Assembly: GCA_965657355.1 (NCBI GenBank)
Contig: CBFHOE010000003.1
Span: 245,520 to 277,568, forward strand
DNA length: 32,049 nucleotides
From: Limisphaerales bacterium
GTDB taxonomy: Bacteria; Verrucomicrobiota; Verrucomicrobiia; Limisphaerales; JAJOIW01
Reading direction: 5' to 3'
Below are positions 14 to 32,049 of this stretch, one piece after another. The translations under genes were made by a program, and so were the position numbers. Within the stretch, counting starts at the first letter, position 1, and each line of letters starts with the position of its first letter. Below the pieces are notes generated by a model. It was not told the origin of the DNA. It worked only from the letters and a program-made list of their open reading frames with translations, and made no database searches.

Positions 14-1309
14 ATGAAAAAATACTCCCCTGCTATTTTTGTGTTATTATACATTCTGACTGCGATTGGTGTTTACCAAATCGGCCTAAAAAATGGTCAA
101 AAAACTCGTTCTAAAGGGGATGCTGTTGCTCAATCATCGAATCAAAACCGAGCAAATACCACCGACAGTAAAGGAGATGAAATTGGGGCTGGTCGTTCGC
201 AGCTTCCGCCAGGTTTAGCACCTGCAACCTCCCTTGACCTCATCAAAGCACAATCGGACCTCTCGGCCGATCTTATTGAATCTTTCTCCGGTCTCAACTT
301 GAACGACATTTTATCGACTTCAGATCCCGTCGACCGACTCTTCAAATTGACGGGGTATCTCAAAAATATGGATGAATCCAATGTGGATACCGTCATTGAT
401 GCATTTGAGAAATCAGAAGCTGGTTATCGAGATTGGGAACTCATGATGAATACCTGGTCCAACTTTGACCCGAAATCTGCGATGACCTACCTGGCCGAGG
501 GAGAATCTTTATCATCCAAAGAAAAAGGGGGATTAGCGCATTCGGTCGTCAAAAACTGGGCTAAATCGGACCCAATGCGAGCACTAGAATTCGTTCAATC
601 CAACGAAATCGGCTACACTAGTTCTGGAAAGTTGTCGTATACAGCTCTGGCGACCGCCATGAAGACAGATCTCAATACTGCTATTCAAATGACCTCCCTT
701 ATACAGGACGAAAAAACGAGAAACTACTCCACTGCCGCCATTGCCAATGAGTATTACGAAGTTGATCCTGTTGGAGCGAAATTTTGGGCAGAATCAATTG
801 AAGACCCCGGAATGAAAAGGGGCGCACTAGAAAAGATAACTAGAGAAATGTCAAATTCCGATCCATATGGAGCTCTCGAATATGCTATGGATCAGTTTGG
901 TGAAAATATTCCATTTTCAGCTGCTCTTTCCCTCTCCAAAAATCTTTCGAAGGAAGATCCTGCTTTTGCTCTCGAATATGCTTCCGGGATTGAGAATGAT
1001 AAAACCCGACAATACGCTATGGCCCAAGCCGTTGGTGAATGGGCAAAGGACGATCCGGTGGGCGTGGCTGAATTTCTCAATAACCAGCCTTCATCTGCCG
1101 AATGGGACGCACCAGTAGCTGCATTCGCAAGAAATGCTTTTGACCAAGACCCTTCTCAAGCCATGGAATGGGCACAGTCGATCTCTAATAATAGACTGCG
1201 GTCCTCCACAATTGGAAGCCTTTATAGAGACTGGTCGCGAAAAGATCGGGACGCAGCTCAGGCATGGGCGAGAACTCAAAAAGATAATCGACCCAAATCA
1301 GGCAAGTAA
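14..1309 (+). CDS. Membrane-anchored alpha-helical repeat protein (W-x2-x-DP-x2-A repeats typical of Verrucomicrobia), function unknown
   Basis: 431-aa ORF; N-terminal hydrophobic segment (AIFVLLYILTAIGVY); recurring motifs WSNFDPKSAMTY, WAKSDPMRALEF, WAKDDPVGVAEF, FDQDPSQAMEWA, WSRKDRDAAQAW. Confidence 0.7.
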   Translation: MKKYSPAIFVLLYILTAIGVYQIGLKNGQKTRSKGDAVAQSSNQNRANTTDSKGDEIGAGRSQLPPGLAPATSLDLIKAQSDLSADLIESFSGLNLNDILSTSDPVDRLFKLTGYLKNMDESNVDTVIDAFEKSEAGYRDWELMMNTWSNFDPKSAMTYLAEGESLSSKEKGGLAHSVVKNWAKSDPMRALEFVQSNEIGYTSSGKLSYTALATAMKTDLNTAIQMTSLIQDEKTRNYSTAAIANEYYEVDPVGAKFWAESIEDPGMKRGALEKITREMSNSDPYGALEYAMDQFGENIPFSAALSLSKNLSKEDPAFALEYASGIENDKTRQYAMAQAVGEWAKDDPVGVAEFLNNQPSSAEWDAPVAAFARNAFDQDPSQAMEWAQSISNNRLRSSTIGSLYRDWSRKDRDAAQAWARTQKDNRPKSGK

Positions 1310-1340
1310 AATTTCAGATGTGAATTTCCTAAGCTTTATT

Positions 1341-2915
1341 TCAGTCTGGCGACATCATAAATTGGAAGGCTGCAGGAACTTTTATTTTTTCAACGACATC
1401 CTCTATGGTCCAGTGCATTGCGTCAGACTGTAAGGTATCCGCCGCAGCTCCATGGTGCCAAATTGCTCTTAAGACCATTATTTTTTGTTCATTAAGAATT
1501 TCATTTTGATCCCAACCTTTATAGGGATGAGCAAGATTGCCCGCTATCATACCCGAAAGCACGTCTCCTGCACCCCCCTGTGCTAAGCTAGGATTACCTG
1601 TGGGGTTTAAAAAATGAGTGCCATCTATATATGTTTGTGTGAGGTATCCTTTCAAAACAGTGACACAGCCTCCATAAGTTTCAGAAAGTTTTTTAGCAGC
1701 GGCAAATCTATCAACTTGAGGATCAATGTTTTCGATATGCGCTTTTGCGAGCATCCTCTTTGCCTCCCCAGCATGGGGCGTTATGACTCTTAGGCTATTT
1801 GTCGAGACTTTACCCACCGGTAACCAGTCTAATGCAGTAGCATCGACAATGAGTGGTTTTTCGGAATGTTTCCAAAGATCTTGTAAAACTGGATAAACAT
1901 AATTTCTCGCCTCCGAAGTAGCTAGGCCAGGGCCAATGAGTATCGAAGTGGCTTTATCCATTAATTCTTCCAATGACTGATTAGAGAATTTATGAACCAT
2001 TGGACCAAGAAGGTTGGATGCCACTGGAATAAAAGCGTCGCCAATCGTTAAGACAGAAATAAGTCCTGGCTGGCGCGATTGAGCTGCTTTGGCAGCCAAT
2101 ATTGCAGCTCCATGGTATCCGGGGCTCCCTGCTATCTCAACCATGTGTCCATAATCACCCTTATGCCCTTCGACCTCTCGGATGACTTCTCCTGAGACAT
2201 CGGTAATTCCCTTGTTCCAAACCCACTGAATATCTGCATCCATGGTTCGCAGCGAAGGATTTAAAGGCAATTCAGGGTGAAGTCCTACATCATGTGCTAA
2301 TAGCAAACGCCCTGTATGCGGCGCCGCAACTGGCAGGACGAGGCCAGTTTTAGGAGCGCCTACAGTCATTGTCCATGTCGCCTTAATTGCTGTTGAGACC
2401 ACCTGACCTGTGTCACAATCGATCCCGGATGGACAATCAATACTCAAAATCGGGTTAAGCAAGTTCAAGAAGTCGACAAGCTTCTGCCAATGCCCTTCTA
2501 AACCGCCTCTTAATCCAATACCAAAAAGACCATCCACGACGAGGTCCGGTATCCACGAAGCTTCCTCAAGGGCTATGTCGGGTGATTCCTCATACTGAGA
2601 AAGTGTTTGAATTGGCACTGCAAGAGATTCTAAAACATCCGTCAGGGCATTTTGAGGATCGTCTATTTTGACACCTTTTATTTCGAAGTCTTTTGTTGGT
2701 AGAAATTGTTGAGCGGCCTTGACATCTGCACCATTATTGCCTTTGCCGATAATCATTAAAATGCGACTGCCTGGATCTATATTTCTCACTATCCATTCGG
2801 CGATTGCCTTGCCTACTAGCCTAATGACATGTTCTTCATTGATACCAATTTCCCATGAAGCCTTTTCCCAAAGCTGCATTTCTTTTACTGATATCACGGG
2901 GCACGAAATACTCAT
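1341..2915 (-). CDS. nnr: Bifunctional NAD(P)H-hydrate epimerase/dehydratase (YjeF N+C)
   Basis: Epimerase motifs GKGNNGAD, VDGLFGIGL, IDCPSG; dehydratase motifs HKGDYG, GPGL, TPHAGE, VLKG, GNPSLAQGGAGDVLSG. Confidence 0.93.
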   Translation of the reverse strand: MSISCPVISVKEMQLWEKASWEIGINEEHVIRLVGKAIAEWIVRNIDPGSRILMIIGKGNNGADVKAAQQFLPTKDFEIKGVKIDDPQNALTDVLESLAVPIQTLSQYEESPDIALEEASWIPDLVVDGLFGIGLRGGLEGHWQKLVDFLNLLNPILSIDCPSGIDCDTGQVVSTAIKATWTMTVGAPKTGLVLPVAAPHTGRLLLAHDVGLHPELPLNPSLRTMDADIQWVWNKGITDVSGEVIREVEGHKGDYGHMVEIAGSPGYHGAAILAAKAAQSRQPGLISVLTIGDAFIPVASNLLGPMVHKFSNQSLEELMDKATSILIGPGLATSEARNYVYPVLQDLWKHSEKPLIVDATALDWLPVGKVSTNSLRVITPHAGEAKRMLAKAHIENIDPQVDRFAAAKKLSETYGGCVTVLKGYLTQTYIDGTHFLNPTGNPSLAQGGAGDVLSGMIAGNLAHPYKGWDQNEILNEQKIMVLRAIWHHGAAADTLQSDAMHWTIEDVVEKIKVPAAFQFMMSPD

Positions 2916-2978
2916 TGAACCACCATATATTTACTAGCCATTCATGTAAACTCACCTGACTAACACAATTTTATTGCA

Positions 2979-4268
2979 TTGAACCTGGTTATGGTTTCTC
3001 GTGAAAGAACATTGGATAATGAAATTTGTCAGTCTGAGCTTTTGAGTCCTGGTCAGTCATGGCTCGATTTCTCTCCTCCAGACCGCTCTGTAGAGTGCGT
3101 TTACATTCATGTTCCTTTTTGCGCCGTCAAATGTCATTACTGTGCTTTTTACTCAAAGGAACCTGACAAAAAGAAAATCGAGCTTTATGTGGATGCGATA
3201 GTCAGAGAAATTCAGAATGCTTCTCATTCTGCTAAGCCACGAACAATTTTTTTTGGTGGAGGAACGCCGTCTATTCTACCTGTGAAGCATCTAACTAAAA
3301 TCTTCAGTGCTATCCAATCAGCAAAATGGACAGAAGTAGAGGAATGGACAGTCGAATGTAATCCCGCAACGCTCAACAAGGACAAGGTTGAGGTCTTCAA
3401 AAATTTTGGCGTTAATAGAGTATCTCTGGGTGTGCAATCCATGGAGCCAATTTTATTGGAAAAGCTTGGCCGTATTCACACGGTTGATATGGTTTTGAAG
3501 ACTTTTGACCTCCTTCGCAGCTCTGGTTTTGAAAATATCAACCTAGATTTGATGTTTGCCATCCCGGGGCAAACCCTCGAAATGTGGGACCAGACGCTCG
3601 AGCGAATCCTCTCTCTTGGTTCTGAACATATGTCTTGTTATGAACTCATATACGAAGAAGATACCCCACTATTTAAGTCTCTGCAGGCGGGCGAGATTAA
3701 GCCTAATGAAGAACTTGCAGAGCAGATGTATCTCAATCTTATCGAGAAATTAAGAGCTAATGAGTTCTACCAATATGAGGTAGCCAACTTTGCACGTGAT
3801 GAATCACGGCCGTCCAATAATAATATATCTTTTGACGAATCAAACCCTCCAATTGCTTTTCCTAAATATGCCTGTCAGCATAATTTGAACTATTGGTTAG
3901 GTGGTTCTTATCTGGGTTTAGGGCCATCGGCAAATGGTTTTATAAACGGATTCCGTTATCAAAATGTAGCGAATACCTCCCGTTATTGTGAAATGATCGA
4001 TTTCCAGGGGGAGGCGTTGGAGTGGAAAGAAAAATTGTCTGATTCAGCCAGAGCAGGCGAAATAGCTGCCTTTGGCTTTAGGACAAGTTATGGTTGGGAC
4101 TTAGATAAGTATTATTCATTAACAGGGATTAGGCTTGAAGACAACTGGGGCAGTTCGATAAAAAAGTTTATTCATTGTGGTTGGATGGAGTCATCCCCGG
4201 GGCGAATTCGTCTTACCCCTCAAGGACTTCGATTTGCTGATAGCGTAGCACTCGATTTTATCGACTAA
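2979..4268 (+). CDS. hemW: Radical SAM heme chaperone HemW (start may be the ATG at 2991)
   Basis: YIHVPFCAVKCHYCAF (CxxxCxxC), FFGGGTPS, RVSLGVQS, NLDLMF, YEVANFA and the HemW-diagnostic HNLNYW. Confidence 0.9.
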   Translation: MNLVMVSRERTLDNEICQSELLSPGQSWLDFSPPDRSVECVYIHVPFCAVKCHYCAFYSKEPDKKKIELYVDAIVREIQNASHSAKPRTIFFGGGTPSILPVKHLTKIFSAIQSAKWTEVEEWTVECNPATLNKDKVEVFKNFGVNRVSLGVQSMEPILLEKLGRIHTVDMVLKTFDLLRSSGFENINLDLMFAIPGQTLEMWDQTLERILSLGSEHMSCYELIYEEDTPLFKSLQAGEIKPNEELAEQMYLNLIEKLRANEFYQYEVANFARDESRPSNNNISFDESNPPIAFPKYACQHNLNYWLGGSYLGLGPSANGFINGFRYQNVANTSRYCEMIDFQGEALEWKEKLSDSARAGEIAAFGFRTSYGWDLDKYYSLTGIRLEDNWGSSIKKFIHCGWMESSPGRIRLTPQGLRFADSVALDFID

Positions 4269-20628: not shown

Positions 20629-21879
20629 ATGGTTTTAGAAAAATCAAAAATACTTTGTGGCCTCGGTGTCCACTACCGGAAATCTAAACTCGGCAGAACA
20701 GGTGAAGCCGCAAAGGATTTCAGTATTCATTTTGGTAAACTCATTGAAGACGTCTCAATTACGCGTTCCAGCGAGACAGAAAATGCCATTAATGAACTTC
20801 TTGCCGTCGAGAGGTTGGGGGGGCTCACCCTGGATCGTGACCAAAAAGATTTTTCGTCAATTATTCAAATTCGCGTTTCTCGTATACAGGAGAATGAGCT
20901 TTTTAAAGCGATCGGCGAACTATCTCCGAAACAGGAGCGCATGGCTCTTTCAGAATTATTCGGAAGTTATATCAATGCCCCTGTACCAGATGCTTATCGC
21001 GGAGCTTGGAATTTCTGGTGCCAAATTCACTCACAAAATGCCCTTAAAGGTAAGGCGCTTGCTGCTTTCAATAAGGATAAACCAGAGGAAATCAAAGAGA
21101 TCCTTGAACTTATTGTCAAACTCTTCAAGTGGCCGCATGCCAGCCAAATATCTCTTGTAAGCGGTGTCTTGTGCGGAGATACCACTCGTATACACAAAAT
21201 TTACCCGAGGTTAATAAAAGTTCTCAACACCTTCACCGATGGAAGTATTACCGGCCTCCAAGATTTTGGAATAATCCTTGAATCGTGCCATTGTCATTTC
21301 CACGGGAGAATTAGGCTCCACATAAATCGTACTATTGTTGATTTCTCTGGATTTCGTTCCGGTATAAAAATTGAGGACATTGACATTCACAGTCTTATCG
21401 ATGTTGATGTCAGCTCTCCTCGTTGTGTTGTTGTCCAAAAAGAAGCAGCCTTTTACGAGTTAGTCAAATTGAATTGCGGCGACCTTTTAGTCCGGTCAGA
21501 TTACCCTAACGAGCCAACAGTGAAGTTCCTTCAAGCACTGCCAGATTCTCTTGATTTTTGGTTTTTCGGTAACTCTGATGCAATTGGGTTTGATGTCTTA
21601 CGTGAGTTGAGAAAATTGACTGGAAAATCGTTCAAGCCTCTGCATATGAATTTCAGGTCTGGGTCCGGCCATGACAACAATCAGCTCCTTCAAACCGAAC
21701 GAAAACTCTTGGAAGCTCTCCTCCAAGCGCCCGAAGTGCAAGACATGAAACCATGGATTCAGGATATTCTTGAAAATAATTCCAATGGCAATTACGAGCA
21801 AGAGACTCTCGGCGTCCCGACCTTAGACTGGTTCCCTTATTTCGAGTCAAATCGTCCGAACACAATTGAAGCTCACTAA
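20629..21879 (+). CDS. jetD: Wadjet JetD-like (DUF2220/Topo VI-A-type Toprim) protein, orphan, with degenerate catalytic motifs
   Basis: JetD-like layout: LCGDTTRI, LQDFGI, HFHG, RCVVVQKEAAFYEL (canonical V-E-N), WFFGNSDAIGFDVL (canonical G-D-x-D-x-x-G), C-terminal YEQE. Recognised by motif recall, not by an HMM. Confidence 0.72.
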   Translation: MVLEKSKILCGLGVHYRKSKLGRTGEAAKDFSIHFGKLIEDVSITRSSETENAINELLAVERLGGLTLDRDQKDFSSIIQIRVSRIQENELFKAIGELSPKQERMALSELFGSYINAPVPDAYRGAWNFWCQIHSQNALKGKALAAFNKDKPEEIKEILELIVKLFKWPHASQISLVSGVLCGDTTRIHKIYPRLIKVLNTFTDGSITGLQDFGIILESCHCHFHGRIRLHINRTIVDFSGFRSGIKIEDIDIHSLIDVDVSSPRCVVVQKEAAFYELVKLNCGDLLVRSDYPNEPTVKFLQALPDSLDFWFFGNSDAIGFDVLRELRKLTGKSFKPLHMNFRSGSGHDNNQLLQTERKLLEALLQAPEVQDMKPWIQDILENNSNGNYEQETLGVPTLDWFPYFESNRPNTIEAH

Positions 21880-24221: not shown

Positions 24222-25205
24222 CTACCCGCCTGCATTCCGAAATGAATGCAGGTCTCTTATTCCAGTGCCGCTCATGCTATGTGCCACTTTCCCTCTCTTT
24301 TTCCCGAGCCATTGGTGGCGATGCTCGAAATATTCCTTTAAATAATCAGCGCTTCCGATAGCTAGCCCTTCGCTAAAATATCTAATTTTCATCTTCAGTG
24401 CTTTTTTTACACTCAACACCCCCTTGCGCTCTCTCTCCGCCATGACTTCCTCAGGAGTAAAACTTTTCTTGCCCTCCCGTTGTTCACCCCCCACTTCGTA
24501 CAAATATACTCGATATCGATGGAGTGCCTCTTGCCATTCGTTTATGCCCGTTCTTCCTGCGCATAACTGCATAATGCCTTTTCTGGCTTTCTTTCCTCCT
24601 GCTATCGCTTCTGCGTAGGAACTCCATCGATATTCGCTGGGGTCCCGAACCATTCCAGCACGTATTGGGTTCAATTCAATATAAGCTGCTGTTCGCATTA
24701 AAGCGTTTTCGCGACCTTCTATGGAGACACTTTTAAAGCGTTCCTCCCACAATGTTCCCTTCCTGTCTAATTTACGATTATACCAGCTACTAAATTTCTG
24801 TTTTATGTCTCTGACAAAGCTAGAAAGGTTATACATTCTCTGACGCAACTGGTCATAAAGTTCTTTCTCATACCTGATATTCCCGAAGTTTTTGTGGCGT
24901 TCGATCATTATATCCATCTGAGCAATTTTCTTTTTAGAGTAGATATTTTTCATCCTGCGGCGCACTTCCTCATCAGAGATTTCATCTGGCTTGACTGGCA
25001 AATGAATTAGAAGATGAAAATGGTTCCCCATGAGGCAATAAGACAGGACTTCCAGGCCAGTAAAGGCTTCGTGTTTTCGAATAAGCCTCAGTAAATACTC
25101 ATTTTCATTATCTTCCATGATGATCCGTCTATCCACAACCCTACTGATCACATGAAAACATTGGGCTCGGTTTTTTGAGATCTGAACATTCCTTGGTACT
25201 CGCAT
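24222..25205 (-). mobile_element. rayT: REP-associated tyrosine transposase (RAYT, Y1 HUH, IS200/IS605 superfamily)
   Basis: FHVISR, YCLMGNHFHLL (HUH), YNRK...GTLWEERFKS, AYIELNPIRAGMV (catalytic Tyr), YRWSSY. Start reassigned to ATG 25205 (MRVPR). Confidence 0.88.
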
Positions 25206-25215
25206 ATTCGTCGTG

Positions 25216-25243
25216 ATTTTAAAAAACAATGGAACTATGTCAA
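25216..25243 (-). promoter_or_regulatory. Sigma70-type promoter of rayT
   Basis: Minus strand TTGACA (25243-25238), 16-nt spacer, TAAAAT (25221-25216); ATG begins 11 nt after the -10 box. Confidence 0.65.
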
Positions 25244-25271
25244 TAAATAAGTACCTGGTACTCTGTTTATT
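25242..25271. repeat. Palindrome (REP-like) abutting the rayT -35 box
   Basis: AATAAA-TA-AGTACC-T-GGTACT-CTG-TTTATT: perfect AGTACC/GGTACT core with AATAAA/TTTATT outer arms. Confidence 0.5.
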
Positions 25272-25283
25272 TTTAAGAAACTA

Positions 25284-26273
25284 CTAAACGTATTTTCTTG
25301 CTCTTATGTCCTCAAGTATGGCGTAGAGGTCTGGGATGGAATCGATGTTGTGTATGTTTCTGGCTTGTGATTTGGATTTGACCGAAGCGTAAGCATATGC
25401 GCTTTTTCCACCAAGAATGATGCAGGTTGAGGGCGGAAGGTAATCGTGCAGGCGCCCAATTTCATCAGGCAGCTTTGGGTCGTCAGCCGGGTATACAATA
25501 CTCAACGCAACTGCTTTTGCGGAGATTTGAGTGGCCGCACCAGCAATTTCTTCAGCATTGATGTTTGATCCGAGGTATTTGCAGTTCCAACCAACAGACG
25601 AACCTGCAGCATAAACCATGGCAGCGCCTAGCTCGTGGAGCTGACCACTTGGAGTTGCTATAATCAATTTGGGCGCCAACGGGTCAGTGACGTATGGGCG
25701 ACCAATTTCGCATAAAAATTGTCTGATTATTGCTGATGAGAAATGTTCATGGGCAACTTTTAGATTTCCTCCCAGCCACTGTTCTCCAATTGTTTTGGCC
25801 AAGGGACCAATAACCTTTTCAATGAGCCCTTGATGTCCAAATTGCACAGCACCTGCTCTTAGGTTGTTGACAAGCGCCACTTCATCCAGTTCTTTCGTTG
25901 CGACAAGACATTTAGAGACCACTTCACTTGGTGTTAATGGTTTTGTGAAAGTGTTAGGATTGAATTGCTGATTCTTTTCGACTTGCTGGTCCTCATGGAT
26001 GAGTTCCTTGAGTTCGGCGTATGACATCTTTGCTAGCTGCCCGATTCTGTGCCCGCGCTCAGAAGCCAACCTCATATATGTGAGGCGTTGAATATCTTCG
26101 TCGTTGTAAAGTCTTCTGTTGGATCCTGTTCTTTTTGGGGTTACGGCTCCATACCTTTTCTCCCATATCCGCAATACATGAGCCGATAACCCAGTGCGGA
26201 TAGACACAACCTTGATAGGGTGCAGGTTATCCTCTGCCGGTCCAACGCTTATCTCCGAAGATCTCACATTCAT
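25284..26273 (-). CDS. carH: CarH/LitR-type MerR-family adenosylcobalamin-binding photoreceptor/transcriptional regulator
   Basis: MerR HTH with LRIWEKRYG and RRLY; W-x9-EH motif (WLGGNLKVAHEH); B12-binding QLHELG followed by YLG and VALS...GG Rossmann elements. Confidence 0.88.
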   Translation of the reverse strand: MNVRSSEISVGPAEDNLHPIKVVSIRTGLSAHVLRIWEKRYGAVTPKRTGSNRRLYNDEDIQRLTYMRLASERGHRIGQLAKMSYAELKELIHEDQQVEKNQQFNPNTFTKPLTPSEVVSKCLVATKELDEVALVNNLRAGAVQFGHQGLIEKVIGPLAKTIGEQWLGGNLKVAHEHFSSAIIRQFLCEIGRPYVTDPLAPKLIIATPSGQLHELGAAMVYAAGSSVGWNCKYLGSNINAEEIAGAATQISAKAVALSIVYPADDPKLPDEIGRLHDYLPPSTCIILGGKSAYAYASVKSKSQARNIHNIDSIPDLYAILEDIRARKYV

Positions 26274-26299
26274 ACTCTGTTTAATAGTATTCCAGTGTA

Positions 26300-26444
26300 T
26301 TGTCTAAATGTCTAATAAAAAAATAGACAAAAAACATTTGAAAACTAAACAGACTTGTATATTTTAGACAAACAAGACTCGATGTAGAGATTATGAGGAA
26401 AAAATTTAGACAACTACATATTTTTTTTGAACAAAACCTAGATC
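26300..26444. promoter_or_regulatory. Candidate CarH operator array in the divergent carH-sigma intergenic region
   Basis: TGTCTA at 26301 and 26309; TAGACA at 26324, 26365 and 26407; TAAACA at 26346; TGAACA at 26428. All fit the TnnACA core of characterised CarH operators. Confidence 0.6.
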
Positions 26445-26501
26445 CATACGTCTAAGTATTAAATTTAAGCGAATATTCACTCTGAAATATTAGAATTAAT
26501 T

Positions 26502-27566
26502 ATGAATGCCACTCGGTCAACAACAGGAAATAGGGTCGTCAATCCCGGCAAAAGCCGCAGAAGCGAATCTTCCAAAAATGAAATCAAAGAATCATCGACG
26601 CTGGACGGGAAGATACTGCTTGCAGATGAACTCCCTGAGAAAGTTCAACTCCGAGTTGAGTCTCCTAAACAAACCAGGAAATCAGCCCCTATTCCAAGCA
26701 TTAATGAAACAGGAAGCTCCTTAGGGCGATACATGCATGAAATAGGTCAAGTCGACCTTCTCAAGCCGGAAGAGGAGAGAGAGCTTGCTGCATTGATTCA
26801 CGCAGGTGACGAATCAGCCCGCGAAAAAATGATCACTGCAAACTTGAGACTGGTCGTCAAGATTGCTAAAGAATACGAAGGATTTGGCCTTCCATTACAA
26901 GACCTCATAAACGAGGGCAATATAGGCCTTATGAAAGCTGTTGAAAGATTTGATCCTAGCAAAGGAAGCAAACTATCTACATACGCTTCCTGGTGGATCA
27001 AACAGGCTGTCAAAAGGGCTCTTGGCAACCAAAGCAAAACAATTCGTTTGCCGCTACATTTGGTGGACCGGCTTTCAAGGATGCGAAAAATTGCTAAAAA
27101 ATATTTCGAGGAATTTAAAAGGGAACCTACAGATGAGGAACTATCAGACGAGCTTGAAATAGCATTGCCGAGAGTGAGATTGTTGAGACGAGCCAGCATG
27201 CGTCCTCTTTCATTGGAAACACCCATTGGGGATGATGAAAGCAGCAGCATAAGCGACATTGTCCCGGATGAAAAAGCTATCAATCCGTACGATCAGCTCG
27301 AAGACAAAGCGCTCAAAGGCTTACTACCAGGTTTGATGCAAACGCTGACATTCCGCGAAGCAGAAATTCTTAAGAGAAGATTTGGGTTGGACGGGAATCC
27401 GGGAATGACACTTGAGGAGGTTGGTGAGCTTTTCGGGGTTACTCGTGAAAGGATCCGGCAGCTTCAAAACGCAGCCCTCAAAAAACTAAGAACCAAAATT
27501 GAGCAGGATCAAGACGTCAATGATTTGGAATTTGATGAAATCCCCCTATTTGCCCAAGCCAGTTAA
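26502..27566 (+). CDS. RNA polymerase sigma-70 factor, RpoD/RpoS-like (regions 1.2-4, no recognisable region 1.1)
   Basis: YMHEIGQVDLL (1.2), ANLRLVVKIAKEY, DLINEGNIGLMKAVERFD, STYASWWIKQ, KTIRLP, TLEEVGELFGVTRERIRQ (4.2). Confidence 0.93.
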   Translation: MNATRSTTGNRVVNPGKSRRSESSKNEIKESSTLDGKILLADELPEKVQLRVESPKQTRKSAPIPSINETGSSLGRYMHEIGQVDLLKPEEERELAALIHAGDESAREKMITANLRLVVKIAKEYEGFGLPLQDLINEGNIGLMKAVERFDPSKGSKLSTYASWWIKQAVKRALGNQSKTIRLPLHLVDRLSRMRKIAKKYFEEFKREPTDEELSDELEIALPRVRLLRRASMRPLSLETPIGDDESSSISDIVPDEKAINPYDQLEDKALKGLLPGLMQTLTFREAEILKRRFGLDGNPGMTLEEVGELFGVTRERIRQLQNAALKKLRTKIEQDQDVNDLEFDEIPLFAQAS

Positions 27567-27604
27567 TACTTAATCACTTTTACAACACTACTCAACAAGC
27601 TCTG

Positions 27605-27637
27605 AGCCAATGGTCCTTGAGACACATTGGCTTTTTT
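27605..27637 (+). terminator. Intrinsic terminator after the sigma factor gene
   Basis: AGCCAATG (27605-27612) pairs with CATTGGCT (27625-27632), followed by TTTTT. Confidence 0.75.
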
Positions 27638-27823
27638 GATCTCATGAGTGTGCGTTTAAAAACACACCACTTTTAGAATTAAAAAATGGTTGTGTCTTTT
27701 GTTAAATCATTGTTAATATGGCGTGACCCCAAACAGTCTATCTTAGATAGCTGTCCGTATTATCGGATGGGTTTCTGTATTACAATTTACTGTTATACAT
27801 AACAAAAATAACTAATAAACCTG

Positions 27824-30800
27824 ATGAATAAACCTAAACACACAAAATTGAGTTGGATTTTGGGGCTTATTGTCGCTGTTGCGCCATTGGCATCCCAAGC
27901 TGCTCTTGATTTCCGAGTCTACGGAAGTGCCGCGTTGGGCGGTTTTGATATTGCTGGTGCTGCGGTCGCTGATTTGACTGCAGATAGCCAATATCCCGAT
28001 GAACCATCGGCTGTAGAATTGGTCACTGCGCTTCCTGGAGAACCAGGAATTAACCTGATCGAACTTACCACTGGTAATTTCGAATTTCGCCAAACTGTTA
28101 ATGGCTTCGCACAAGGTAACTCCGGATTGGATAACTACGGTGGAGCGATTTCAGGACTTCTATACGCTCCCGCCGATGGAAGTTATACATTCCACGTAAG
28201 ATCTGACGATGCTTCGCAGTTCTTCCTCAGCACTGACGCTGACGCGGACAACATGGTTCTCTTAGCTGAAGAGACTGGTTGTTGCGGAGGTTTCACTAAA
28301 GACGCCCCAGAAGGGTCTGAAGCTGTTGAGCTTGAAAAAGGTCAAGCTTACTACTTTGAATTCCTATTCAAAGAAGGTGGCGGAGGTGACTGGTTCCAAG
28401 TAGGTTGGGCACTTGATGGTGGCGAAATAGAAGTCATCCCTGCTGCTTATCTCCAAAGGGACATTAGTAGCCGCGTCTCGGATCTCATCGAAGAGCCATT
28501 AGACTTCTTCACCACTCCTAACGATTTCATGGATCTTGAGCCATTCGTAACTGAAAACATCGAAACCAGTATTGATTTTATTGTCGAATTCAACAAAGAC
28601 GGCGCAGCTGCCATCCAATGGCAGATGAACGACGGTGGCGGCTGGGACGACATTGAAGGTGCTGTCAGCCCGTTGCTTACTGTTGACATTTCCGTTGACA
28701 AAGACGGCAACCAATACCGCGCTAAGGTTGATGACGAAACTTCTATGGCCTACACACTTATTGTTGAACCAGATACAGAGGCTCCAACAGTTAGATTCGT
28801 CAGCCACAGAGGTAACCCAAATGCTTTCATTGCTGCATTCTCTGAGCCAGTAGATCCTGATTCTGCTCTCGATCTCTCAAATTATGAATTCGATGGAAAA
28901 CCACTTCCTGAAGGAACGACAATCAGTCTTAACGACGCGGGAACAGAGGTTATTGTTCTTGGCCCATTCAACATGGAAGAGGGTGACAGAAAATCTGTTT
29001 CTTTCTCAGGTATCGTTGACCGTGCGGCTACTCCAAACGAAATCGAAGGTTTTGACAAGACATTAGCTTACGTTGGTGGCGAAGGCATTACTTATGATTT
29101 TAATGACGGTATCCCTACCGATGGTGATGGAAATCCAATCATGGAGCTCTTCGGAAACGCGGAAGTTCGCGACTCTGGCGGTGTTGGTGATTCCGGATAT
29201 CTAAAAATCACTGATGGTGCTGGAAGCCAACTTGGTGCGGCCCTCATCACTCAGCGTATCGATGTTCAGCAAGTTATTTTCAGCTTTGATGCCCGTATCG
29301 GTGATACATCAGGTCGTCCAGCTGACGGTTGGTCATTCAACGTTGCTGATGACATGCCGACTGGCACATACCAGCAATCAGAAGAAGGATACCGCGGTGG
29401 AGAAAGTGATCCGCCACAAGGTTTGGTTGTCGCAGGTGACAACTGGTCATCTGGTGGTGCTGACTTAGGTGTCGGTATTGAAGTTAAGTATGCTGGCGAA
29501 TCTCGCGCATTCGTCGCTACTCCTGAAGTCACATCAGGTGGAGCGCCTACAGAAAGCCCTGAAGGTATACCTTCTATTCACCGAGGTGACAGATGGTTCC
29601 CAGTTTCAATCGCACTAGGTGAAGACGGAACAGCTACAGTCGTTTATGATGGTGTCACTATCATGGAAAATGAGCCAGTCGGTTGGGAAGGTGTTTCTGA
29701 CGCACAGATTGGTTTTGGTGCCCGAACTGGTGGTGCCTGGGAATCACACTGGTTTGATAACGTTAACATCAACCTTTCTGGAGGCCCTATTGGTCCTGTG
29801 ACTATGGAGCAGCAGCCAGAAGGTGTATCTGGAGCAGCAGAGCACTCACAGGTTACACTATCTGCTATAGCTGGTGGAGCTACATACGGCCGTTCTTTCC
29901 AATGGTATAAAGTTGGCGGTGGCGCCGGAGTTGCAGGAAACATTTCTAATGTATCCCTTGCTGACGGAAACATCGCAATAACCTACGTCGGTTCACTTGA
30001 ATCATCAGACAGTGTCAATGGTCCTTGGACCGCGGTTGCTAGCTCAGCCACCGAAGCCACTTACTCAGAGGCAGCATCTGGTAATGAAAAGTTCTTCCGC
30101 GTTCTTGACGCCGCTGGTGGCGGTGATGGCGAAGGCGTTATGCTTGAAGGTGAAACAAGCAGCAGCTTGAGTTTCACAGCAACACCAGCAGCAGCGGGTC
30201 AATACTATGTTGTTGCGTCCAACTGGTTCTCTGATGTCCAATCCGATACGGTCTCTGTGACAGTCGTTCCAGATACTGTTGCTCCAATGGTTGTTTCTGT
30301 ATCAGGTTCACCATTAAACAACTCAGCGACTGTGACTTTCTCTGAGCCAGTTTCTGAAGAAACTGCTGGAAATGCTGACAACTACAGCATCGAAGGTCTT
30401 GAAATCACAGGCGTTACTGTAAGCAACCCAACGACTGTTTCGGTTATGACTGCTGATCAGGCTGATGGAACTCCATACCAGTTATCTGTTAGCGGAGTCG
30501 CCGACTTAGCCCAAACTCCAAATGTCACAGATGGAACACCAAACGAATTTATCTCGTTTGAAGAAGGTTTTGGCGGTCTGACAGTCCTCTTTTATGACCA
30601 TGGAGGAACAAGTCTAGACTTCTATCCTGAAGAAGATCGTGGAAGAGGTTTATACCCAGATAACTTCAACCCATTTGGAACTGGACCAAACATCACTGAC
30701 TTGAGTAACCGTAATTCTTCAACTACACCTTATTTTGAAGCACCGGCTACTGGTGACATCAATGTTGTCCCTCCTTCAGGCGTGGCAAACGACTACGCTC

Positions 30801-32049
30801 TCGTGGTCTACGGATACATTGTTCCACCACAAACAGGTAACTACAGATTCGGTATTGGTGCTGATGATAATGCGGCACTCTACCTCTCATCTGATGATGA
30901 TCCAGAAAATGCAACACTCATCGCTAACGAAAATGAGTGGAACAGCAGACGTGAATACGACAAAGATATCAACAAATCTGAGCCTATCTTCCTTGAAGAA
31001 GGTGAAAGATATTATGTTGAGGCTTTGATGTCTGAAGGTGGCGGTGGTGACAACCTCGCCGTTGCTTGGGAATTCGCACCAGATGGTGAGGAGCCTGCTG
31101 ACATAGCCAACGGAACTCTTCCAATTGCTGGGGAATACCTAATCAGTAACTTGCCTGTATTCAGGTTCCCTGAACTCTTGGCTGCTAGCCCAGCTGATGG
31201 AGCAAATGGCTTCCAAGCTGACACTGGAACTGCAAGCTTCACTTTCCAAGACGGTAAGTTTAGCCCAATGGACACAGACAGCGTCGAAGTCAAACTCGGC
31301 GACGAGATGCTAGAATCTGAAGTAACAGCAGGTGGTAACATCACCATCACTGCAACGCTTCCAGAACTTCTCGACCTGAATACAAGCTACACAATCACTG
31401 TATCTTACGGTGTTGGCGGATCTGATGAACCTATGACTCACACATTCACCTTCCAGACTGAAGACATCCCAACATTGGCTAACAAAGCTGCTGATGTCGG
31501 AGCTGGTGGAAACTCAGGTATGCTCGTTAACGCTCGCCAAAGCACAGAAGGTCGCGGTAATAGCACTGAAGATGCCGAAGCTCAAATAGCTGGTGGTGGA
31601 GACCTATTCGAAGCGGATAATGTCGAAGTGATATACATCAACCATAACCAGGACGTCGGTGGAAATGCTGGACGTTTTGGAGATGACATTGGCATGTTCG
31701 ATGCAGGTCTCATGGATGAAATCAACACTGACAACATCTCATGGGAGGTCTTAACATATGTTGAATTCACAGAAGCTGGTATTGTCACTATGGCTGTCAA
31801 TTCTGACGATGGATTCCGTGTCACACACGGTGAGGAGCCTGCGCTAAACGATGATGATCAAGTTCTTGGTGTCTTCAGCGGTGGTCGCGGTGCATCGGAC
31901 ACAATCTTCCGTTTCGTAGTTCCTGAGCCAGGTATCTATCCAATGCGACTCCTTTGGTATGAAGGCGGCGGCGGAGCCAACGTCGAATGGTGGACATTGG
32001 ATGCTGACGGAGTTCGTCACTTGATCAATGGACCTGACGACAGTGCTGC
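27824..32049 (+). CDS. Very large secreted acidic surface protein, partial (>1400 aa): three PA14-like domains, Ig-like and Big_5-like domains, L-type lectin-like domain
   Basis: Absent from the ORF track because it has no stop in the window. Manual translation from ATG 27824 is open to the end: MNKPKHTKLSWILGLIVAVAPLASQA signal; PA14 motifs YTFHVRSDDAS...KEGGGGDW, YRFGIGADDNA...SEGGGGDN, VNSDDGF...YEGGGGANVEW; DTxAP...FSEPV twice; PADGWSF...GFGARTGG. Confidence 0.9.
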   Translation, partial: MNKPKHTKLSWILGLIVAVAPLASQAALDFRVYGSAALGGFDIAGAAVADLTADSQYPDEPSAVELVTALPGEPGINLIELTTGNFEFRQTVNGFAQGNSGLDNYGGAISGLLYAPADGSYTFHVRSDDASQFFLSTDADADNMVLLAEETGCCGGFTKDAPEGSEAVELEKGQAYYFEFLFKEGGGGDWFQVGWALDGGEIEVIPAAYLQRDISSRVSDLIEEPLDFFTTPNDFMDLEPFVTENIETSIDFIVEFNKDGAAAIQWQMNDGGGWDDIEGAVSPLLTVDISVDKDGNQYRAKVDDETSMAYTLIVEPDTEAPTVRFVSHRGNPNAFIAAFSEPVDPDSALDLSNYEFDGKPLPEGTTISLNDAGTEVIVLGPFNMEEGDRKSVSFSGIVDRAATPNEIEGFDKTLAYVGGEGITYDFNDGIPTDGDGNPIMELFGNAEVRDSGGVGDSGYLKITDGAGSQLGAALITQRIDVQQVIFSFDARIGDTSGRPADGWSFNVADDMPTGTYQQSEEGYRGGESDPPQGLVVAGDNWSSGGADLGVGIEVKYAGESRAFVATPEVTSGGAPTESPEGIPSIHRGDRWFPVSIALGEDGTATVVYDGVTIMENEPVGWEGVSDAQIGFGARTGGAWESHWFDNVNINLSGGPIGPVTMEQQPEGVSGAAEHSQVTLSAIAGGATYGRSFQWYKVGGGAGVAGNISNVSLADGNIAITYVGSLESSDSVNGPWTAVASSATEATYSEAASGNEKFFRVLDAAGGGDGEGVMLEGETSSSLSFTATPAAAGQYYVVASNWFSDVQSDTVSVTVVPDTVAPMVVSVSGSPLNNSATVTFSEPVSEETAGNADNYSIEGLEITGVTVSNPTTVSVMTADQADGTPYQLSVSGVADLAQTPNVTDGTPNEFISFEEGFGGLTVLFYDHGGTSLDFYPEEDRGRGLYPDNFNPFGTGPNITDLSNRNSSTTPYFEAPATGDINVVPPSGVANDYALVVYGYIVPPQTGNYRFGIGADDNAALYLSSDDDPENATLIANENEWNSRREYDKDINKSEPIFLEEGERYYVEALMSEGGGGDNLAVAWEFAPDGEEPADIANGTLPIAGEYLISNLPVFRFPELLAASPADGANGFQADTGTASFTFQDGKFSPMDTDSVEVKLGDEMLESEVTAGGNITITATLPELLDLNTSYTITVSYGVGGSDEPMTHTFTFQTEDIPTLANKAADVGAGGNSGMLVNARQSTEGRGNSTEDAEAQIAGGGDLFEADNVEVIYINHNQDVGGNAGRFGDDIGMFDAGLMDEINTDNISWEVLTYVEFTEAGIVTMAVNSDDGFRVTHGEEPALNDDDQVLGVFSGGRGASDTIFRFVVPEPGIYPMRLLWYEGGGGANVEWWTLDADGVRHLINGPDDSA

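Follow-up and report, generated by a model that had tools for sequence, protein, structure and literature searches.

A stretch of 32,049 nucleotides from a marine Limisphaerales bacterium (assembly GCA_965657355.1, contig CBFHOE010000003.1, positions 245,520 to 277,568), hereafter the window, carries a gene for what appears to be a B12 photoreceptor of the CarH/LitR family, head-to-head with a gene for a sigma-70 factor. The locus probably works as a light switch in two tiers, like LitR-LitS, with a sigma factor that does not belong to the extracytoplasmic function (ECF) type. An earlier note, made from the sequence of this DNA, had described the two genes as divergent and 228 bp apart, and both open reading frames (ORFs) lie exactly where it had placed them, on either side of a spacer at 26274-26501. 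The verrucomicrobial genome is 4.38 Mb in size, in 55 contigs, and 92% complete. The elements of the locus are the following:

25284..26273, minus strand: carH-like gene, 329 aa, with Pfam domains above cut-off and a match to structure 5c8d (E 4.1e-25)
26274..26501, no strand: divergent control region, 228 bp, 25% GC, with repeat sites inside
26502..27566, plus strand: sigma-70 gene, 354 aa, alternative and group-2-like, with its regions from Pfam; the best NCBIfam rows, RpoD and RpoS, are below cut-off
27604..27639, plus strand: predicted intrinsic terminator after the sigma gene, hairpin and U run, from fold energy and sequence

The 329-residue protein matches the Pfam families MerR_1 (PF13411, 52.2 bits, residues 20-83, above cut-off), B12-binding_2 (PF02607, 25.2 bits with a cut-off of 23) and B12-binding (PF02310, 38.4 bits with a cut-off of 32.1). 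A search of solved structures aligned it in both domains with Thermus thermophilus CarH (5c8d, 92 bits, about 30% identity), where residues 138-292 correspond to residues 123-271 of the structure, comprising the four-helix bundle and the Rossmann B12 part. In this alignment W166-x9-E176-H177 falls on the Thermus W-x9-EH motif, and H213 on the axial histidine that is the cobalt ligand. For CarH and class I LitR proteins, the available part of PMC8156234 describes W-x9-EH as capping the adenosyl group, gives the B12-binding motif as ExHx2Gx41SxV/Tx22-27GG, and takes a missing W-x9-EH as the mark of the B12-independent CarA. The window protein reads Q211-x-H213-x2-G216-x41-S258-x-V260-x27-G288G289, which fits the published motif in all elements except the first, and W166, E176, H177, Q211, H213, G216, S258, V260 and G288-G289 are invariant in 60/60 sigma-paired relatives. 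From the light-response signature GxxW, EH, GxxH and GxxxP, as given in the available part of PMC11796333, G163xxW166, E176H177 and G210xxH213 are present and the GxxxP element is not matched. Judged by these domains and motifs, the product is a CarH/class I LitR-type protein, in agreement with the earlier note, whose wording of the B12 motif as xxHxxG already allowed for the glutamine. Protein searches found a single carH copy in the genome, and a single match to a PduO-type adenosyltransferase (C3:131562-132077, minus strand), so the cell can presumably make adenosylcobalamin from cobalamin. This cob(I)alamin adenosyltransferase gene immediately precedes the primary sigma gene (C3:129150-131432, minus strand), on the same strand.

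The divergent partner shows sigma-70 regions 1.2, 2, 3 and 4 (PF00140, PF04542, PF04539, PF04545), all above cut-off, and the hairpin at 27604-27633 with its U run, 3' of the sigma stop codon, folds with -19.9 kcal/mol (z -3.15); the regions and the terminator had both been reported in the earlier note. Its N-terminal 72 residues are unmatched, and region 1.1 and the long N-terminal part are absent. The scores of the two nearest NCBIfam models, RpoD NF004208 (311.9 vs 555) and RpoS TIGR02394 (288.1 vs 378.7), both fall below cut-off. The genome contains 14 region-2 matches in all, among them two that serve for comparison:

C3:129150-131432, minus strand: primary-type sigma, 760 aa, region-2 match
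contig C1: sigma paralog, 322 aa, region-2 match

Two further genes of 260-302 aa are taken to be FliA-like, judged by size and sequence alone, and nine more are ECF-sized (about 175-218 aa) and separate genes. The window sigma shares 37% identity with the C-terminal part of its 760-aa primary counterpart and 52% with the C1 paralog, and its region 4.2 helix is largely common with that of the primary sigma (e.g. TRERIRQ). We built a tree of 82 sequences, comprising the carH-adjacent sigmas, the remaining short and long copies of five well-assembled genomes, and the copies of the window's own genome. The long sigmas, of primary type, group together in one clade with support 1.0, and the short sigmas make up the remainder. 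Among the latter, a single subclade (support 0.998) holds the copies that lie away from carH, the C1 paralog among them; the window sigma and that of a genus mate branch near the base of the short clade. The question of primary versus alternative copy, raised in the earlier note, is settled in favour of the alternative: the window sigma stands apart from the long primary clade and, from its place in the tree and its regions, can be classed as group-2-like.

The pairing of the two genes is widely conserved. We examined 301 genomes sampled from the same verrucomicrobial order, 131 of which hold a CarH relative (E <= 1e-15), and took the flanks of 133 near-full-length CarH matches (119 genomes) among the matches listed, dropping about 16 partial matches. 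ORFs were called by a simple script, with starts often over-extended in GC-rich genomes. A divergent sigma gene was present just upstream of carH in 68/133 loci, corresponding to 67/119 genomes from 24 families, again among the matches listed. The sigmas of 67 loci measure 303-476 aa and score 270-550 bits against the window sigma, and one more sigma gene is cut by a contig end. The true paired share is somewhat higher, because 12 unpaired loci end at a contig edge less than 1300 bp upstream. In an independent set of named records, 26/80 CarH loci have the same divergent arrangement; these loci were found with a CarH alignment as query (a single CarH protein gave no relative), and their record titles are mostly Verrucomicrobiota, Verrucomicrobiia, Limisphaerales or Pedosphaera, in line with the phylum supposed in the earlier note, with a few plainly mislabelled bins. 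The synteny of carH and an rpoD-like gene, to which the earlier note had drawn attention, is thus a conserved one.

Two records titled 'Candidatus Latescibacterota' carry a CarH relative and then a sigma gene on the same strand (L236:3585-4448 and L237:3611-4456, both plus strand). These sigmas, of 281-287 aa, have regions 2, 3 and 4 and no region 1.2, and represent a link between CarH and a non-ECF sigma in another arrangement.

The spacers between the paired genes share a repeat operator. In 65 spacers, anchored on both coding regions, TAGACA is found in 62/65, vs a mean of 11.35 in mononucleotide shuffles. The commonest same-strand spacing of the hexamer is 11 bp (19 pairs), followed by 30 and 41 bp, and once the spacers are aligned on TAGACA, the hexamer is echoed 11 positions to either side (-11 and +11). 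The refined 11-mer, AAnTTAGACAA, fits the published CarH repeat nAnnTnnACAn, which according to the available part of PMC8156234 occurs as three tandem copies in Thermus and four in Bacillus megaterium. Over the 65 loci, sites of at least 8 bits number 269 on the sigma strand vs 28 on the opposite strand, and in all 65 the best tandem triple belongs to the sigma strand and stands in front of the sigma gene. The hexamer TTGACA, which itself fits TnnACA, is found on the sigma strand in 48/65 loci (opposite strand, 5; shuffles, 6.2), and in 35 loci its register matches that of a strong repeat, where it resembles a -35 element embedded in a repeat as in Myxococcales. Free sigma paralogs served as a control: in 7/7 cases their upstream 300 bp contain no site, including the 26%-GC region of the window's own genome, and the carH-adjacent sigmas of this comparison have 2-8 sites in 4/6 cases.

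The window spacer was scanned with a position weight matrix (PWM) trained on 63 other loci, with the own genus left out. Eight sites of at least 8 bits were obtained, four on each strand, and they are given here together with one weaker repeat:

26300..26318, minus strand: two overlapping repeats toward carH, CATTTAGACAA (11.2 bits) and TTATTAGACAT (12.2 bits), sites at 26300 and 26308
26320..26330, plus strand: CarH-type 11-bp repeat AAAATAGACAA, 13.1 bits
26342..26352, plus strand: weaker repeat AAACTAAACAG, 7.7 bits, 22 bp past the 26320 site
26355, minus strand: PWM site
26361..26371, plus strand: repeat ATTTTAGACAA, 14.8 bits
26403..26413, plus strand: repeat AATTTAGACAA, 15.3 bits, its TAGACAA invariant in three genus genomes (genus alignment)
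26424..26434, plus strand: repeat TTTTTGAACAA, 10.6 bits, 21 bp past the 26403 site, its GAACA invariant in the genus
26448..26458, minus strand: weak inverted repeat TACTTAGACGT, 8.3 bits, within a genus-conserved GAACA-N16/17-GTCTAA element

Because 5 of the 11 TAGACA hexamers of the window lie within these 228 bp, vs a genome-wide density of 0.27 per kb, their presence in the spacer is not due to chance. The GTCTAA beside carH, in the sites at 26300..26318, is conserved in the genus alignment, and the three genus genomes share TAGACAA followed by GAACA 21 bp later, about 100 bp upstream of the sigma start. The coupling of CarH and sigma suggested in the earlier note is therefore supported at two levels, by the pair itself in 67/119 genomes and by CarH-type direct repeats in the spacer, here and in relatives. 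The GAACA-N16/17-GTCTAA element (26429-26455), conserved in the three genus genomes upstream of the sigma start, resembles an ECF-type promoter or, alternatively, a repeat plus an inverted repeat. As the promoter of a sigma or ECF-like regulon it was rejected: it occurs in only 3/65 spacers, and none of its 8 genome hits is at a light-related gene.

All clusters of PWM sites were then ranked over the 4.38-Mb genome:

Rank 1, 94.3 bits: carH-sigma spacer
Rank 2, 60.6 bits, C9:112323-112477: upstream of a crtI-family carotenoid operon
Rank 6, 40.2 bits: directly upstream of a fasciclin gene, C3:305953
Rank 9, 34.3 bits: 11-bp repeat pair upstream of the PQQ-propeller gene C4:273871-275241
Ranks 3-5, 7 and 8: near panC/peptidase, phosphatase, RNase HII/MutY, LuxC and pilin-like genes

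The clusters of the last line, with about 38-43 bits, are at the level of AT-rich background and were not counted as targets. The C9 operon combines two crtI-family desaturase genes (524 and 327 bits, against a cut-off of 238) with genes for a glycosyltransferase, a CrtO-type acyltransferase and an aldehyde dehydrogenase. The first crtI-family protein (53% identity), the fasciclin protein (62%) and the propeller (45%) are the own genome's best matches to families that neighbour carH elsewhere, and the propeller ortholog (C4:273871-275241, minus strand), with its TAGACA repeat pair upstream, is located behind a photolyase gene. The statement of the earlier note that the window has no carotenoid or photolyase gene is correct for the window, where a domain search of ORFs of at least 120 aa found neither domain; the genome does have the C9 carotenoid operon.

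The genes around carH in the relatives point in the same direction as these candidate targets. Neighbouring ORFs were clustered, and cluster representatives were named by Pfam. The recurrent layout has carH followed downstream by an SRPBCC gene; on the divergent side stands the sigma gene, and behind it SDR, amine-oxidase-type (crtI-family), aldehyde dehydrogenase, PQQ-type propeller, photolyase or photolyase-related genes. The first same-strand gene past sigma belongs to the SDR, crtI, aldehyde dehydrogenase, PQQ-propeller or photolyase families in 35/61 loci, and in 23 it is at most 60 bp away. At unpaired loci the same cargo families stand directly opposite carH. In the CarH tree, sigma-paired copies, with which the window CarH groups, are found in deeper clades, and one large clade takes in most unpaired copies, with some found outside it. 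Six genomes (G104, G137, G156, G194, G058, G221) have a paired and at least one unpaired CarH, these copies coming from different parts of the tree, and the unpaired ones (e.g. L045/L118, L098/L090/L091) have carotenoid-type, fasciclin, SDR or unnamed genes opposite. The pattern suggests that two paralogous CarH lineages, one sigma-paired and one carotenoid-paired, have divided tasks.

Beta-propellers of the PQQ_2/BamB-like type were seen in 25 ORFs of the carH/sigma neighbourhoods, often right after sigma and before a photolyase gene (L056, L064, L080, L089, L094, L112, L119, L126 and others). The own genome also encodes a second MerR-family regulator, of 325 aa (C9:225421-226398, minus strand), with a DNA-binding domain 35% identical to that of CarH and a C-terminal part with no Pfam or NCBIfam match. 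It is divergent from a rhodopsin gene, which is followed by a beta-carotene dioxygenase gene (on locus L002 the regulator occupies 799-1776, minus strand, and its neighbours 1935-2681 and 2722-3240, plus strand), and the spacer between regulator and rhodopsin genes has three repeat-like sites at background level (32 bits). Homologs of this regulator are present in 4/301 genomes of the order, the other three without an adjoining rhodopsin gene.

We propose the following mechanism. In the dark, the CarH-type protein with bound adenosylcobalamin would oligomerise and occupy the AAnTTAGACAA repeats across the 228-bp spacer, keeping the divergent sigma promoter off, and probably its own promoter too. 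Green, blue or UV light would photolyse the cofactor, the repressor would leave the DNA, and the group-2-like sigma would be made and steer RNA polymerase to a second tier of genes. That light switches the sigma on is probable because the pairing and the repeats recur in many relatives, and the two-tier reading after LitR-LitS is favoured because the sigma gene often heads a carotenoid or photolyase operon in them. In parallel, a first tier would be under the repressor itself, probably acting directly on the crtI-family carotenoid operon and possibly on the fasciclin and PQQ-propeller genes. The targets of the sigma are expected to be mainly photoprotection genes and not a global programme, as indicated by the cargo that follows sigma in relatives and by the repeats at the own carotenoid operon elsewhere in the genome.

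Several observations weigh against this switch. In the protein, Gln211 replaces the Glu of ExHxxG (also in 60/60 relatives), Asn239 takes the position of the GxxxP proline in the window protein only (Pro in 53/60 relatives, Ser in 6), and the Trp is not followed by a His, unlike in Thermus CarH. The NCBIfam CarH equivalog NF052513 is the best-scoring family, yet reaches 114 bits vs a cut-off of 400, and no cobalamin riboswitch was found in the 92%-complete genome. In the window spacer the strong sites are 41-42 bp apart, with weaker partners at 19-22 bp, dispersed and in mixed orientation and not in tandem, and the best tandem triple has 11.4 bits vs a median of 21.1 over the 65 loci. No promoter could be placed in the region: the consensus scan gave 6 promoter-like sites vs 5.5 in shuffles, and 0/35 of the in-register TTGACA hexamers of the relatives have TAnnnT 16-18 bp downstream. 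The sigma gene is also monocistronic in the window, and its targets are thus not indicated by an operon.

Some of these points could be read in other ways. The two substitutions, Gln for Glu in the B12 motif and Asn for the signature Pro, would suit a repressor independent of B12 or light, which might resemble CarA or sense the supply of cobalamin, and there are known paralogs and LitR classes that do without B12 (for B12-independent CarA, the available part of PMC8156234). We hold this to be very unlikely, given that W-x9-EH, absent in B12-independent CarA, is invariant here, as are the axial His and the S-x-V...GG elements, and that the genome has an adenosyltransferase gene. The missing sigma promoter, which neither the consensus nor the TTGACA/TAnnnT scan could place, would in turn fit repeats that serve only carH autoregulation or the cargo of relatives, with a light-independent sigma whose adjacency is inherited gene order, and two of the strongest window sites (26300-26318) do face carH and adjoin its start. 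The arrays of the relatives face the sigma gene (269 vs 28 sites) and precede it in 65/65 loci, TAGACAA...GAACA is kept in the genus about 100 bp upstream of the sigma start, and free sigma paralogs are without sites, all of which makes this explanation highly improbable.

A different question is how far the sigma reaches. The earlier note had favoured a global regulon, in which light and B12 turn on a group-2-like sigma that reprograms transcription broadly. The retained primary-like recognition regions (TRERIRQ in region 4.2) would make many promoters readable, the monocistronic window gene with its own terminator is tied to no one operon, and the closely related clade of free paralogs (support 0.998) points to a family used for other programmes too. 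Such breadth is nevertheless unlikely in our view, since the relatives link the gene to cargo of the carotenoid, photolyase and SDR kinds, the spacer and genome-wide motif searches yielded no sigma-specific promoter motif, and GAACA-N16/17-GTCTAA, with its few genome hits, marks no light-related gene. We therefore retain the two-tier switch with mainly photoprotective targets as the preferred reading.

In four runs of two marine metatranscriptome studies, contigs match pieces of both genes at 95-100% identity. Transcription of the genes would fit this; level, strand and light dependence are not readable from such contigs and DNA carry-over is possible, and the gap in contig cover over 26283-26464 and past the gene ends carries no meaning. 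Rfam gave no match within window positions 25000-28000 at E up to 1.

Other genes of the window are of a different nature:

20629-21879, plus strand: ORF of 416 aa that weakly matches (25.7 bits, cut-off 22) the C-terminal domain of Wadjet JetD
24222-25229, minus strand: 335-aa protein with an IS200-like Y1 transposase domain, related to REP-associated tyrosine transposases
27824-32047, plus strand: PA14-domain protein of more than 1408 aa that looks secreted, starting past the sigma terminator and running off the window

The transposase gene is 55 bp downstream of carH, the position taken by an SRPBCC gene in 15/67 paired relatives, and looks like an insertion because a DUF7133 gene directly abuts carH in a genus mate. 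The PA14-domain protein does not look linked in function to the carH/sigma pair.

What is known of CarH/LitR photoreceptors concerns mainly their direct switching of carotenoid genes, and the only CarH/LitR sigma cascade known to us is the one with an ECF sigma in Streptomyces. A full-text literature search, with subscription papers and supplements outside its scope, turned up no account of a pairing between a CarH/LitR gene and a non-ECF sigma, of CarH in Verrucomicrobiota, or of a group 2 sigma controlled by a neighbouring B12 photoreceptor, and no paper on the Chloracidobacterium MerR/B12 protein; the impression in the earlier note that the pairing had not been described in Verrucomicrobiota is in keeping with this. 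If the coupling, conserved in 24 families, acts as proposed, light sensing in these non-phototrophs would be wired through RNA polymerase specificity and the light response would hinge on an exchanged vitamin, B12, in an environmentally abundant verrucomicrobial order. The sigma-paired and carotenoid-paired CarH lineages, which coexist in some genomes, are set apart here, and the defined operator motif and compact two-gene module lend themselves to bench tests or to use as a green-light switch. A bolder extension, possible but rather doubtful, is that a primary-like, non-ECF sigma gated by a B12 photoreceptor is a widespread second-tier light regulator in Verrucomicrobiota, and perhaps in other phyla (two Latescibacterota-labelled loci), so that in abundant surface-water bacteria that are not phototrophs a sizeable share of transcription would depend on light and B12 supply together. 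On this view the sigma would have become free-standing in this genus, behind a multi-site, two-orientation operator that could accommodate several repressor oligomers and give a graded response.

Group 2 sigma factors include RpoS and the cyanobacterial SigB-E type. The window sigma resembles them in its primary-like regions 1.2-4, the lack of region 1.1 and the separate housekeeping sigma in the genome, and differs in scoring below every NCBIfam equivalog cut-off. The known targets of the Thermus and B. megaterium CarH proteins are carotenoid genes or a CRP-type activator, and not a sigma factor. With Thermus thermophilus CarH (5C8D/5C8E) and Bacillus megaterium CarH/LitR the window protein shares the two-domain architecture, W-x9-EH and the axial His, whereas it has only about 30% identity, QxHxxG, no His after the Trp, and Asn at the Pro of GxxxP. 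The operators are alike in the 11-bp repeat nAnnTnnACAn, as far as the available part of PMC8156234 describes it, and unlike in that the window repeats are dispersed and not three to four in tandem.

In the Myxococcales, according to the available part of PMC9304148, CarH operators are plastic, with one to three good repeats plus degenerate ones and the -35 element embedded in a repeat, and serve two divergent promoters. The window operator shares this plastic design, whereas in the Myxococcales described there carH lies in or near carotenoid operons that are read by the primary sigma, and the ECF sigma CarQ belongs to a separate, B12-independent pathway (PMC9304148, same part).

The closest parallel is the LitR-LitS system of Streptomyces coelicolor and Streptomyces griseus, in which an AdoB12-type MerR photoreceptor gene is likewise divergent from a sigma gene across a common control region. 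The available part of PMC11519972 states that Streptomyces LitR represses the bidirectional litR and litS promoters, and that sigma-LitS then reads the crtE promoter. The two systems differ in phylum, in the operator, which here consists of TAGACA-type 11-bp repeats, and in the sigma itself, LitS being an ECF sigma and the present one having regions 1.2, 2, 3 and 4 and lying near the RpoD and RpoS models. The likeness that we propose is that of a sigma factor acting as the second tier, a role in which the Streptomyces sigma, in the text available, reads carotenoid promoters.

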